DNA of 39,577 nt from a virus. Taxonomy: Duplodnaviria; Heunggongvirae; Uroviricota; Caudoviricetes. A program made the translations under genes and the position numbers. Numbering within the stretch: position 1 is the stretch's first letter; every line of letters starts with the position of its first letter. Positions 5,693 through 33,567 of this stretch are shown piece by piece. The stretch is from IMG/VR virus record IMGVR_UViG_2529292882_000015, one strand, 5' to 3'. A model generated the notes under the pieces. It saw nothing but the letters and a program-made list of their open reading frames with translations. It made no database searches and was not told where the DNA came from.

Positions 5693-5707
5693 TTACCTTT
5701 CAGGTGA
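5693..5707. promoter_or_regulatory. Operator-like palindrome TTACC-N5-GGTGA (site 1 of 13)
   Basis: TTACCTTTCAGGTGA, in the divergent region between the tailspike start and the LexA-box promoter. Confidence 0.5.
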
Positions 5708-5744
5708 TTTGCAAAACGTGCTGGATAGCAAACAAATTATTTGA

Positions 5745-5764
5745 TACTGTATAAATATACAGTT
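5745..5764 (+). promoter_or_regulatory. LexA (SOS) box overlapping a promoter-like region
   Basis: TACTGTATAAATATACAGTT matches the consensus TACTGTATATATATACAGTA at 18 of 20 positions with the CTGT-N8-ACAG core; preceded by TTGATA (-35-like); 20 bp upstream of the ATG at 5784. Confidence 0.7.
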
Positions 5765-5783
5765 ATTGCATGGAGAAGATAAG

Positions 5784-6041
5784 ATGCAGCAGTATCACTA
5801 TCCACTGGAAGACGGATTTACCGAAAGGATTCACACGCCGGGAGGCGTCAGGTCACTGGTGGAGAGATCGCACTTGATGAAATTACTCCGGGATCTCGAT
5901 AAGGATGGATTTAATGTCGATGGCCCACTTGCCGAACTGACTGCACTGATTAACTACGTCACCAGCTCACAGATGTCTATGCAGGATCTGCAAACACATC
6001 TCGACTATTGTGCCGAACAATTACGAAAACAAACCAGATAA
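5784..6041 (+). CDS. Small SOS-regulated antirepressor-like protein (paralog of the antirepressor C-terminal domain)
   Basis: 85 aa from the ATG at 5784 with RBS GGAGAAG; clearly similar to the C-terminal ~70 aa of the downstream antirepressor (...LMKLLRDLDKDGFNVDGPLAELTALINY...DLQTHLDY vs ...LMNLLNRLQEDGHDVSGAAAELTTIFCY...DIQTHAEY). Confidence 0.6.
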   Translation: MQQYHYPLEDGFTERIHTPGGVRSLVERSHLMKLLRDLDKDGFNVDGPLAELTALINYVTSSQMSMQDLQTHLDYCAEQLRKQTR

Positions 6042-6072
6042 GGTTTGTAATTACCAAGTGGAGTGCTTATAT

Positions 6073-6087
6073 TTACCTTTGCGGTAA
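6073..6087. promoter_or_regulatory. Operator-like palindrome TTACC-N5-GGTAA (site 2 of 13)
   Basis: TTACCTTTGCGGTAA, in the intergenic region between the small antirepressor-like gene and ant. Confidence 0.5.
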
Positions 6088-6354
6088 ATTTACATCGCAC
6101 TCCTCTTGTGCCATAGTAGTCGGGCACTGGCAAAATCCAGTGCCGGGATTGGCGTCCCGGGTTACTACAGAGGCACATATGCCGCATAAGCGGTTTTTTT
6201 TATGTGTAAAGCGCACCTATTCTATGGTGGGCTGTGTGGGGGCACCGAAAGGTGCGCCGGGTCCTTTGTAGCCGGTTACGCCAACCCTGCACAGTTCACC
6301 ACCAACCGATTGGCGTCGGTAGTGGTGATTAACCTAACTACAAAGGTGATCACT

Positions 6355-7041
6355 ATGACTGCTAACGTAACCCCATCTGTTTTTCATTTTGAATCAGAAG
6401 CAACCATTCGAGCCATTGTTATTGATGGAAATCCTTGGTTTGTTGCCAAAGACGTTATTAAAGCTCTTCAACTGACAAACCCCACTATGTCAATAAAATC
6501 TCTTGATGATGATGAAAGGGCTAAATTTAACTTAGGCCGTCAAGGCGAAACCAATATTATCAACGAGTCAGGCCTCTACACACTGATCCTCCGCTGCCGC
6601 GATGCGGTGACACCAGGCACTATCCCCTACCGCTTTCGTAAATGGGTTACAGGTGAGGTTCTTCCTCAGATCCGCCGCACCGGAAGTTACATTAAAAACT
6701 CGCTCCCGCAGGAAGAACGCATAAAGATGGTTGCCGACCAGGTAGCCAACGCCACAGCATCAGCAGTGATGCAGGCAATGAAGATAGAGAACAAAACCTA
6801 CAGCGCCCCACTGAAGCCCGGCTACCGCAGTCTGATTCATTCTCCGTCTGGTGTTCTCGGCTTGACGGAGAACTCACTGCTGATGAATCTGCTGAACCGG
6901 TTACAGGAAGACGGGCACGACGTATCGGGCGCGGCGGCGGAGCTGACCACCATATTCTGCTACATCGTCGGTGTGAGCAAATGCCTGCGTGATATCCAGA
7001 CACACGCGGAGTACATCAACGACAAGGCAGGGTTCTTCTGA
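6355..7041 (+). CDS. ant: Antirepressor, Bro-N domain family
   Basis: Bro-N-like N-terminus (ATIRAIVIDGNPWFVAKDVIKALQLTNPTMSIKSLDDDERAK); RBS AAGGTGA upstream of the ATG at 6355; sits beside the tailspike gene as in P22 immI. Confidence 0.75.
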   Translation: MTANVTPSVFHFESEATIRAIVIDGNPWFVAKDVIKALQLTNPTMSIKSLDDDERAKFNLGRQGETNIINESGLYTLILRCRDAVTPGTIPYRFRKWVTGEVLPQIRRTGSYIKNSLPQEERIKMVADQVANATASAVMQAMKIENKTYSAPLKPGYRSLIHSPSGVLGLTENSLLMNLLNRLQEDGHDVSGAAAELTTIFCYIVGVSKCLRDIQTHAEYINDKAGFF

Positions 7042-7107
7042 CATGACGGCGGCACAGGGATGTGCCTTTAAATAATTCTGTACAGATTGCAGGTGAATAG
7101 CTTACTA

Positions 7108-7122
7108 TTACCTCACGGGTGA
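7108..7122. promoter_or_regulatory. Operator-like palindrome TTACC-N5-GGTGA (site 3 of 13)
   Basis: TTACCTCACGGGTGA, upstream of the leader mini-ORF and terminator that precede the 7252 gene. Confidence 0.5.
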
Positions 7123-7211
7123 TCCATAGCGATTAGGCACCGATACAGGAGGAGCCCACATGAGAAAATTTGACGAGTACGAAGGCGTTTAACATTCGGA
7201 TAGTTTAATGA

Positions 7212-7234
7212 CGGGGCCATTAGGCCCCGTTTTC
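7212..7234 (+). terminator. Rho-independent terminator/attenuator hairpin in the leader of the 7252 gene
   Basis: GGGGCC-ATTA-GGCCCC followed by GTTTTC; about 20 nt downstream of a 10-codon mini-ORF (7160-7192) that has a strong AGGAGG RBS. Confidence 0.45.
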
Positions 7235-7251
7235 ATGTCTGGAGACAGTTT

Positions 7252-7791
7252 GTGTTAAGTGAAGAAATGCAATTTGCCATGGCTGTAGCTCAAATCGTAA
7301 GTGCAGTCGCGGTTTCGCTTGGCTTGTTCATAGCTATCGCTACTATTATTTATAATGTAAATACAGCGAGAAAAGTACACACTTCAGTATTCCTTGGTGA
7401 AAGCAGGTTTGATGTAGATTATAAGAAAGGCCTATCTACTATGCGCCGCATTCACGAATCGAACAAATCATTCCGCTCTTATATGTATCCAAGCAATGGG
7501 CAGGCTGATCTTACGGATGAAGAAAAGACAGAGAAGAGAGAAATAATTTACTGCCTAGGTTTCTACGAACGCATGGCTGTGAGCGTGAAGCGGAAAACTT
7601 ATGATGAGACCATGATTAAGGAAGTATTTTACAGCTCCGTTGTAAATAACTATCAGATTGCGCTACCTCTTATACAAGCCATTAGAGAAAAAGAAAACAT
7701 AAACACATATTTTAAAGAATATGAATGGTTGGCCACACGATGGAAGGATTGTCCATTGAAGGATAAATCCCCGTGGTACAAGTTTTGGTAA
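7252..7791 (+). CDS. Membrane-anchored protein, candidate superinfection-exclusion/abortive-infection moron
   Basis: GTG start with RBS GGAG; N-terminal TM helix (AMAVAQIVSAVAVSLGLFIAIATIIY) then a soluble domain; AT-rich coding sequence unlike neighbours; plus strand inside the minus-strand late region, at the position sieA occupies in P22. Confidence 0.6.
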   Translation: MLSEEMQFAMAVAQIVSAVAVSLGLFIAIATIIYNVNTARKVHTSVFLGESRFDVDYKKGLSTMRRIHESNKSFRSYMYPSNGQADLTDEEKTEKREIIYCLGFYERMAVSVKRKTYDETMIKEVFYSSVVNNYQIALPLIQAIREKENINTYFKEYEWLATRWKDCPLKDKSPWYKFW

Positions 7792-7813
7792 GCCCGCGTT
7801 GCGGGCTTTTTTA
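7790..7813 (+). terminator. Rho-independent terminator after the 7252 gene
   Basis: AGCCCGC-GTT-GCGGGCT followed by TTTTTT, directly after the stop codon. Confidence 0.6.
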
Positions 7814-32694: not shown

Positions 32695-32730
32695 AGCTAT
32701 TGCCTGATATTTATTTCAGATAATAAATAT

Positions 32731-32745
32731 TCACCCATAAGGTAA
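32731..32745. promoter_or_regulatory. OR-type operator site (site 9 of 13)
   Basis: TCACCCATAAGGTAA; overlaps the spacer of the minus-strand TTGTTA-N17-TATTAT promoter for the cro-like gene. Confidence 0.55.
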
Positions 32746-32761
32746 CAAAAATCAAGGATAG

Positions 32762-32776
32762 TTACCTATGGGGTGC
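32762..32776. promoter_or_regulatory. OR-type operator site (site 10 of 13)
   Basis: TTACCTATGGGGTGC. Confidence 0.55.
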
Positions 32777-32778
32777 AT

Positions 32779-32793
32779 TTACCTGTTGGGTAA
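32779..32793. promoter_or_regulatory. OR-type operator site (site 11 of 13)
   Basis: TTACCTGTTGGGTAA; the three OR sites have centre-to-centre spacings of 31 and 17 bp. Confidence 0.55.
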
Positions 32794-32848
32794 TATTGCT
32801 TTAAATTGAATCATCTACTGATTCATATATGAGGCGATTTTCCAGAAA

Positions 32849-33433
32849 ATGAAAAGTATCCAGGACGTCCGCAGGCAAAATCTCAACGACTTGATCGACC
32901 GTGAATTCAATGGTGTTCAGACGCGGATGGCAGAAAAACTTGGAACTCAGGCAAATCTGGTAAACCGCTGGGCTCTTGGCAAGAAGGTTATCGGCGACCA
33001 GGTTGCGCGAAAAATTGAAGCTGCCGCCAATAAACCCCGTAACTGGCTTGATATCGATCGCTCGCTTTCTCAGGAAGGTTTTCAGCCTGTCGGACCGAGC
33101 GACATTGGTCAGCTGGCGGCTCACAACCTGGAACGCTGGATGAGCGAAAGCCGCGACCTTTCAACGCAGGGAAAACTTCACCGCGCATCCGGCGTCGCCC
33201 AGGTGACAATCAGCCGCCTGTTAAACAATGAGGTCAGCGTTTCCATTTCCACCCTGGAGAATGTTGCATCCGCATTCGGGCGTCACGGCTATGAATTACT
33301 GATTCACCCGCACGACCCTGCGACTATCAACTATGACCGCTCGCGCTACGCTTTGTTACCCGAAACCGAGAAAGCAAAGATCGAAAGTTACATTGAATTT
33401 GTCATCAACCAGAACGAAAAAAACAAACAATAA
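32849..33433 (+). CDS. Prophage repressor candidate with two Xre-type HTH domains and no peptidase domain
   Basis: Two HTH-like segments (QTRMAEKLGTQANLVNRWALGKK and LHRASGVAQVTISRLLNNEVSVSISTLENVASAFG); divergent from the cro-like gene across three operators; followed by a terminator and the pL-like promoter; no S24/LexA-like C-terminal domain. Confidence 0.6.
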   Translation: MKSIQDVRRQNLNDLIDREFNGVQTRMAEKLGTQANLVNRWALGKKVIGDQVARKIEAAANKPRNWLDIDRSLSQEGFQPVGPSDIGQLAAHNLERWMSESRDLSTQGKLHRASGVAQVTISRLLNNEVSVSISTLENVASAFGRHGYELLIHPHDPATINYDRSRYALLPETEKAKIESYIEFVINQNEKNKQ

Positions 33434-33454
33434 AATCATATTTTTCAGTAAGTA

Positions 33455-33478
33455 AGCCGCCTTCTGGCGGCTTTTTTA
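33455..33478 (+). terminator. Rho-independent terminator after the repressor gene
   Basis: GCCGCC-TTCT-GGCGGC followed by TTTTTT. Confidence 0.6.
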
Positions 33479-33490
33479 TTGCCTATTAGA

Positions 33491-33505
33491 TTACCTAACG
33501 GGTAA
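33491..33505. promoter_or_regulatory. OL-type operator site (site 12 of 13)
   Basis: TTACCTAACGGGTAA, upstream of the pL-like -35. Confidence 0.55.
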
Positions 33506-33524
33506 TTTTTTTAACTCATATCTA

Positions 33525-33553
33525 TTGACATCAAACCAGATACGCATAATTAT
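33525..33553 (+). promoter_or_regulatory. pL-like early promoter
   Basis: TTGACA at 33525-33530, 17-bp spacer, AATTAT at 33548-33553; the -10 overlaps operator site 13. Confidence 0.45.
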
Positions 33554-33567
33554 TACCTCAACGGTAA
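33553..33567. promoter_or_regulatory. OL-type operator site (site 13 of 13)
   Basis: TTACCTCAACGGTAA, overlapping the -10 of the pL-like promoter. Confidence 0.55.

Follow-up and report, generated by a model that had tools for sequence, protein, structure and literature searches.

Dispersed palindromes in an epsilon15/phiV10-like prophage of Escherichia coli are probable operators of an SPC32H-type Rep repressor

The closest described immunity systems are those of the Uetakeviruses epsilon15 and SPC32H. Kropinski et al. reportedly described the putative operator of epsilon15 in 2007 as a hyphenated inverted repeat of 17 bp (Virology 369:234), and Kim and Ryu are said to have found in 2013 (J Virol 87:11775) that the ant gene of SPC32H is under LexA and that its product, Ant, inactivates an uncleavable repressor, Rep. 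The crystal structure of SPC32H Rep is PDB entry 5D50; entry 5D4Z also belongs to this switch (Kim et al. 2016, PNAS 113:E2480). SPC32H Rep acts as a tetramer on palindromic sites, its DNA-binding pairs coming from different dimers, and is dismantled by Ant (PMC9638917); its C-terminal domain is folded as a DNA-looping "TetDloop" in which ~100 Å separate the two domain pairs, and the mechanism of repression "has not been extensively characterized" (PMC9986798). Here, we analyze a stretch of 39,577 nucleotides, virus record IMGVR_UViG_2529292882_000015 (the whole of it is called the window below), which is an integrated Uetakevirus (epsilon15/phiV10-like podovirus) prophage adjoining E. coli yfgH/yfgI, with respect to a 15-bp palindrome, TTACC-N5-GGTAA (extended form, ATTACC-N5-GGTAAT), that recurs in its intergenic gaps. 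We propose, with a probability of roughly 0.8, that this palindrome is the operator of the prophage's own Rep, and that the promoter of each module would be silenced separately by Rep, not only at the left and right operators (OL and OR). The proposal is drawn from the placement and synteny of the sites, the annotation of epsilon15, the match of Rep to 5D50, a link through the lambda-like Pseudomonas genome PseuP_224, the overlap with promoters, and the literature.

In the epsilon15 record (AY150271.2), seven protein_bind features are labeled "repressor" with the note "lysogeny", and their sequences are of the form (A)TTACC-N5-GGTAAT (16–17 bp). They stand before TerS, before gp3/portal, in the gp19/tailspike gap, at three places in the pL region, and at one place past the replication gene. 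The motif, the repressor assignment, and the dispersal are already public for this type phage of the genus, and the design is known. The window shares with epsilon15 the genus, the palindrome, and its syntenic places, and differs from it in the repressor (42% identical overall), in the central 5 bp of the sites (A/T-rich in epsilon15, mixed in the window), and in added sites before the Bro-N gene and the DUF4760 moron. With the SPC32H switch, it shares a Rep homologue, a closely related Ant, a LexA box before ant, and palindromic operators, which in SPC32H are bound by a tetramer (PMC9638917, PMC9986798); the middle and C-terminal part of Rep is strongly diverged, and the window has in addition a Bro-N gene with its own operator. 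The hallmarks of Uetakevirus Rep–operator immunity, namely a Rep homologue, dispersed palindromes, and a small Ant with a LexA box, are all found in the window. No operator is annotated in the records of phiV10, phiv142-3, or SPC32H, and a full-text literature search for operators in this phage group returned only the paper on phage ZX5, which speculates on a PL operator (PMC9782041). The present analysis adds a map of 14 sites for a phiV10-type prophage (vs the seven annotated in epsilon15), conserved 62-bp site pairs that bracket promoters, a connection, via PseuP_224, of the half-site to the N-terminal domain of Rep, and the identification of the true SPC32H-type antirepressor gene.

Eight perfect copies of TTACC-N5-GGTAA are present in the window against 0.01 expected from dinucleotide shuffles, and 12 strong sites have at most one mismatch (0.68 expected), a number that no shuffle attained. 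No perfect copy was found in lambda or in 50 kb of E. coli K-12 DNA with a comparable GC content. Two-mismatch matches are at background (28 in the window vs 17–25 in other genomes, including lambda and E. coli) and were rejected as a class because their number is that of the background; the copies at 32394 and 32762 were counted only for their synteny with better sites in relatives, which brings the total to 14. The original prediction had listed 13 copies and depended on their exceeding background. Both parts were reproduced (eight perfect, three with GGTGA at 5693, 7108, and 32731, and two with GGTGC at 32394 and 32762), except that the site at 27765 had been missed. The ACC-N5-GGT core is unchanged in all 14 sites, and their extended consensus is (A)TTACC-Y-N-W-N-R-GGTAA(T). 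An MqsA-like palindrome, ACCT-N3-AGGT, was considered and rejected, because motif positions 6 and 10 are variable and the epsilon15 sites do not fit it.

Intergenic DNA makes up 7.5% of the window and holds every one of the 14 sites; the 12 strong ones alone would all fall there by chance with a probability of ~3e-14. Nine sites lie outside OR and OL. The sites had been supposed to precede almost every transcription unit, and of the 14 gaps that span 100 bp or more, nine do hold one, whereas the tailspike–lysis gap and the gaps or units at 8375–8569, 25053–25249, and 37081–37189 are site-free in the window.

When all 5-mer palindromes with spacers of 0–12 were counted in the window, epsilon15, SPC32H, Klebsiella phage BUCT711, and Enterobacter phage Tyrion, TTACC-N5-GGTAA ranked first in each of the five genomes, with 8–11 copies apiece. 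The repressors of the compared genomes have 42–78% identity to the Rep of the window. The sites occupy the same junctions genus-wide: an 18-bp doublet at TerS, one site at gp3/portal, one at tailspike/ant, one at the Bro-N gene where present, three at OR, two or three at pL, one past the terminator of the cro-like gene, and a post-replication pair. A distance of 62 bp (63 bp once) separates the two members of the pL pair and of the post-replication pair in six of six genomes. In alignments of this otherwise diverged intergenic DNA, conservation is concentrated in islands formed by the operators, the nearby -35/-10 hexamers, and the terminators that precede them. Judged from this genus-conserved layout and from the "protein_bind, repressor" label that the same palindrome bears in the epsilon15 record, the palindromes are very probably repressor operators, as had been argued from the window's sequence at the outset. 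The extension of the sites beyond the immunity region was likewise anticipated correctly, the epsilon15 record marking the same palindrome at dispersed junctions.

Rep matches 5D50 over residues 1–190 (E = 4e-42) and is 100% identical to the repressors of phiV10 and ZX5. It consists of an N-terminal helix-turn-helix (HTH) DNA-binding domain (Pfam HTH_3) and a second HTH-like domain, and no Pfam match to Peptidase_S24 was found in it. The protein had been taken for a lambda CI-type repressor; it is a homologue of SPC32H Rep instead. Half of its N-terminal 70 residues, including NLVNRW, are invariant over four repressor clades, and the remainder is far more variable, a pattern that mirrors the invariant half-site.

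A further connection, from an independent lineage, is provided by PseuP_224, whose tail genes are of the lambda type and whose record annotates a putative Q antiterminator. In its cI, an S24 peptidase is joined to an N-terminal domain that is the only part in common with Rep (39% identity, E = 1e-12). The OR of this genome has two perfect copies of TTACC-N4-GGTAA, on either side of a degenerate one, and its OL has two copies (sites at 10906–10947 and 11768–11822); none was found beyond OL/OR. The window resembles PseuP_224 in the type of N-terminal domain, in the TTACC/GGTAA half-sites, and in having three sites at OR and two at OL; it differs in the N5 spacer (N4 in PseuP_224), in its Rep as opposed to an S24-type cI, and in nine extra sites where PseuP_224 has no dispersed ones. 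Compared with lambda-type CI in general, the sites of the window are not confined to clusters flanking the repressor gene. The PseuP_224 arrangement ties a Rep-like N-terminal domain to the TTACC half-site and indicates that the dispersal is peculiar to the Uetakeviruses. In ZX5, overexpression of the repressor abolished free phage and lowered the holin and endolysin mRNAs by 99.97–99.99% (PMC9782041).

Here, we propose a scheme for repression based on these comparisons and on the positions of predicted promoters (Table 1). Rep, as an SPC32H/epsilon15-type protein, combines the N-terminal HTH domain with a middle dimerization and a C-terminal tetramerization domain and has no self-cleaving peptidase domain. 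In the lysogen, pairs of N-terminal domains would sit on palindromes at nearly every module junction, usually just past a terminator; the order terminator, operator(s), promoter, and next module is common to four junctions. Multiple sites would be filled at OR (three), at the 62-bp pairs that bracket pL and the post-replication promoter, and at the 18-bp terminase doublet, and single sites at the two antirepressor-type genes, at the moron, and in the portal/tRNA and tailspike/ant divergent regions. Where an operator starts at the last one or two bases of a -10 hexamer or lies in a promoter spacer, Rep would occlude RNA polymerase, and the observed geometries fit such occlusion. The 62-bp (six-turn) pairs fit either cooperative binding or bridging by a tetramer, a step that we infer. 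A second candidate for the post-replication promoter, TTGATA-16-TAAAAT (30469..30442), was discarded, as its -35 is not conserved in relatives.

Induction would proceed without RecA cleavage of Rep: after inactivation of LexA, the small Ant (5784–6041) would be made and would strip Rep off the DNA. This Ant is 87% identical to SPC32H_020 "ant", and the perfect LexA box that precedes its gene is kept in six of six genomes. The gene is the probable SOS-responsive antirepressor and is distinct from the Bro-N gene at 6202–7041, to which the name ant had originally been given. The identity to the SPC32H counterparts is 87% for Ant and ~42% for Rep, and the divergence of Rep falls mostly in the middle and C-terminal part, reportedly the part bound by Ant.

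Table 1. Predicted operators, promoters, and regulatory genes of the window (palindrome positions by their first letter; promoters are read from sequence)
Feature	Coordinates	Strand	Sequence or match	Context and counterparts
Operator	5693..5707		TTACCTTTCAGGTGA, 1 mismatch	Between tailspike gene (start 5588, - strand) and small ant gene; syntenic with epsilon15 19896 (annotated repressor-binding), phiV10 20877, SPC32H 20013, Klebsiella phage BUCT711 16965, Tyrion 21776
Promoter before ant		+	TAGACA-17-GATATT	Operator 5693 begins inside -10 (overlaps its end)
LexA box	5747..5762		CTGTATAAATATACAG, perfect	Upstream of small ant gene
Small antirepressor (85 aa)	5784..6041	+		SPC32H Ant homologue
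Operator	6073..6087		TTACCTTTGCGGTAA, perfect	Upstream of Bro-N gene; syntenic with phiV10 20497, Tyrion 21393, BUCT711 17377
Promoter before Bro-N		+	TTGTAA-17-TATATT	Operator 6073 begins at -10 end
Bro-N domain protein	6202..7041	+	Pfam Bro-N, 7.8e-20	"ant" of the original prediction
Operator	7108..7122		TTACCTCACGGGTGA, 1 mismatch	Upstream of DUF4760 moron 7252–7791; phiv142-3 counterpart perfect, at 6153
Operator	24639..24653		TTACCTTTCAGGTAA, perfect	Between gp3/portal operon (-) and tRNA-Arg (+); epsilon15 syntenic site 2931–2947 annotated repressor-binding
Operator, proximal in 18-bp-spaced doublet	27765..27779		TAACCACCGTGGTAA, 1 mismatch	Abuts TerS start codon; doublet 27765/27783 kept in phiV10, Tyrion, epsilon15
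Operator	27783..27797		TTACCGTTGTGGTAA, perfect	Between terminator 27817–27834 and TerS; epsilon15 equivalent 12–27 annotated repressor-binding
Proximal post-replication operator	30386..30400		Perfect	Overlaps -10 and start site; ends 4 nt before DUF1064 ATG
Post-replication promoter (sigma-70-like)	30400..30428	-	TTGATT-17-TTTAAT	Bracketed by the two post-replication operators; pL-like layout; -35/-10 conserved in six genomes
Distal post-replication operator	30448..30462		Perfect	62 bp from proximal; matches epsilon15 35906–35922, annotated repressor-binding
Weak operator	32394..32408		TTACCTTTAAGGTGC, 2 mismatches	After cro-like gene's terminator 32423–32442; syntenic with 1-mismatch sites phiV10 33112, Tyrion 35365, BUCT711 6032
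Cro-like protein (76 aa)	32464..32694	-		epsilon15 gp39 homologue
PR-like promoter	32748..32720	-	TTGTTA-17-TATTAT	Operator 32731 in spacer
OR operator closest to cro-like gene	32731..32745		1 mismatch	In PR-like promoter spacer
Middle OR operator	32762..32776		TTACCTATGGGGTGC, 2 mismatches	Aligns with perfect sites in epsilon15, SPC32H, BUCT711
OR operator closest to rep	32779..32793		Perfect	
Rep repressor (194 aa)	32849..33433	+		
Distal pL operator	33491..33505		Perfect	After rep terminator 33454–33473
pL promoter	33525–33553	+	TTGACA-17-AATTAT	Proximal operator from last T of -10; distal operator centered 62 bp upstream
Proximal pL operator	33553..33567		Perfect	Begins at last base of -10

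Several points weigh against the assignment of the dispersed palindromes to direct repression by Rep. The portal and tailspike operators are located ~70–80 bp upstream of late-type promoters, off the core promoter. The operator at 24639 is 52 bp upstream of a minus-strand late-type motif and ~80 bp upstream of the predicted start of the portal operon, and the operator at 5693 is ~70 bp upstream of the predicted tailspike start. Both overlap a divergent sigma-70-like promoter instead; at 24639, a genus-conserved plus-strand TTGACA (24617–24622), facing tRNA-Arg and a gp66-like gene, precedes the operator by 16 nt. Direct control of late promoters, as the original prediction also envisaged, is plausible given the conservation of these sites, but their distance from the late-type element speaks against it. 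Neither the site at 7108 nor the TerS doublet is accompanied by a convincing sigma-70 promoter, the doublet having only a weak candidate, TTGCAT-17-GGTAAY. The Cro-like protein is as conserved as the N-terminal domain of Rep, and sequence cannot separate the two as the ligand; PseuP_224, moreover, seems, as read by eye, to encode a related, unannotated Cro-like open reading frame divergent from cI (apparently ~2170–2395 on the minus strand of L009). The expression data of ZX5 cannot tell direct from indirect repression, the repressor-site annotation of epsilon15 may itself be prediction only, and Rep occupancy at the dispersed sites of the window is argued from sequence comparison.

As to the way in which Rep would act at distance, one could tentatively picture it as a genome-wide looping silencer, an extension that we regard as possible rather than probable. 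One TetDloop-type tetramer would bridge each 62-bp pair (centers at approximately -62 and +1) around its promoter, the single operators ~70–80 bp upstream of the late-type promoters would block a late activator, and the TerS doublet would be a roadblock behind its terminator. A lambda-like OL/OR module of the kind seen in PseuP_224 might in this manner have turned into a P1-like distributed network with direct control over units of the early, middle, late, and moron kinds. Rco of plasmid pLS20 offers a parallel, as it also combines an N-terminal HTH with a C-terminal tetramerization domain of the SPC32H Rep fold and has a protein antagonist; the DNA loops that it forms join operators separated by 75 bp, on either side of the promoters under its control (PMC9986798). 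Rco differs in recognizing direct-repeat elements, in belonging to a Gram-positive plasmid, and in controlling one locus.

The late-type motif itself, CATATGTGGTT-N7-TA(A/T)nA(n), is a second conserved element, found on the minus strand before the tailspike gene (5637–5662) and before gp3/portal (24571–24596). We regard it as a candidate for a late promoter or for the site of a late activator. In epsilon15, the motif also occurs upstream of the lysis cassette (24754), and a block of ~50 nt preceding the portal operon is nearly invariant over six genomes. The shorter sequence ATGTGGTT is also present within the post-replication promoter, in its spacer, at 30406–30413 (-); the window has three copies of it, each on the minus strand and in a regulatory gap. 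Genes for a PerC-family (37190–37489) and an AlpA-family (36832–37080) regulator are located in the leftward (pL) operon and are candidates for the activator of the late genes. Among the window genes scanned, none was noticed to encode a Q-like antiterminator.

The rival account that retains most force, although an unlikely one, is that some sites are "stoperator"-like roadblocks against terminator read-through into the terminase (27765/27783) and replication (32394) genes. Stoperators of the L5/Bxb1 gp71 type are asymmetric, orientation-biased sites that block elongation. The palindromes of the window resemble them in being numerous outside the immunity region and in lying in short intergenic gaps downstream of an early promoter. 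The three sites concerned come directly past the intrinsic terminators 27817–27834 and 32423–32442, no good sigma-70 promoter was seen at them, and the early, replication, terminase, head, and tail genes form a series in one direction, all on the minus strand. The sites of the window are, however, palindromic and without orientation, and mostly lie over promoter elements; the weak promoter at TerS may still be used, and roadblocks have no experimental precedent in this phage group.

The Cro-like protein probably shares at least the OR sites with Rep because it is equally conserved (58–84% identity genus-wide, with an invariant AGTTSHYIQ-HLT and no Pfam hit). It is improbable, in our estimate, that the dispersed palindromes serve mainly this protein or another phage regulator of lytic growth, leaving Rep at OR/OL only. 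The putative recognition helix of the Cro-like protein is invariant and could read the invariant half-site, and Cro and repressor use common operators in lambda-type switches. Against this, the epsilon15 annotation names the repressor for these sites, PseuP_224 has the TTACC half-site in company with a Rep-like N-terminal domain, the sequence and promoter geometry of the pL pair are found again at the dispersed sites, and paired sites suit a tetramer with two DNA-binding pairs. The separate global phage regulator that had been offered as an alternative found no support.

The conserved islands might also be thought of chiefly as recombination linkers for mosaic exchange at the module boundaries of Uetakeviruses, with a regulatory role only at OR/OL. 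The sites are indeed placed precisely at module junctions with divergent DNA on either side, but what is invariant in them is the short dyad ACC-N5-GGT around a variable center, too short for homologous recombination, and the 62-bp spacing and the -10 register are conserved; we consider this very unlikely. An artefact of chance or composition in AT-rich intergenic DNA, suggested by the AT-rich motif and by the background level of its 2-mismatch versions, is refuted by the excess over shuffles (8 vs 0.01), by the lack of a perfect copy in lambda and the E. coli segment, and by the synteny over six genomes.

If Rep does guard the junctions, the organization is comparable to that of phage P1, a plasmid prophage whose C1 repressor has more than 12 operators scattered over the genome and in whose induction an antirepressor takes part. 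The distribution of the sites of the window over many separate units fits such a one-repressor design. The P1 operators are asymmetric 17-mers, whereas that of the window is a symmetric dyad, and Rep is of the HTH_3/XRE type and is presumably unrelated to C1. The prophage would join P1 and L5 among the temperate phages that do without an OL/OR-plus-cascade logic. Each module would have its own Rep-guarded junction of terminator, operator, and promoter, a feature that could aid engineering and prophage annotation; derivatives of phiV10 serve as reporter phages for E. coli O157:H7.

Some observations on epsilon15 and other relatives complement the site map. Five good sites of epsilon15 fall outside its seven annotated ones: three at OR (33341–33402), one at 24704–24718, and the second member of the post-replication pair at 35969–35983. 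The site at 24704 is between the lysogenic-conversion genes and the lysis cassette, and one may ask whether Rep represses one side or activates the other. A lysis-cassette operator is present at this place in epsilon15 and at 24692 in phiV10, and none was found in the window, in which the lysis genes come directly after the tailspike gene. A site near int in relatives, GGTATTACCTTAAAGGTATAC, ~57 bp upstream of int, was set aside for the window, since its position falls past the right end.

At the left side of the prophage, positions 1–1161 are E. coli chromosome with yfgH and yfgI, matched in 5,422 of 5,426 complete E. coli genomes, and the 17-bp att core of ZX5, ATTGAGTGGGAATGATT, is at 1162–1178, exactly where the phage homology begins. 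The right end of the window is the start codon of the integrase. The ~4-kb immunity and replication region has 98% identity to phiv142-3, phiV10, PAS61, and ZX5. ARAGORN places tRNA-Arg(TCT) at 24976–25052 on the plus strand, where it diverges from the portal operon, an arrangement shared with SPC32H; in the phiv142-3 record, the equivalent tRNA is annotated on the opposite strand, possibly an annotation error. Within the DnaT/O-like replication gene, an iteron-like array at 31661–31799 is composed of 12-bp (2.4 copies), 24-bp (2.6 copies, 100% identity), and 18-bp (3.1 copies) units and is a probable replication origin.

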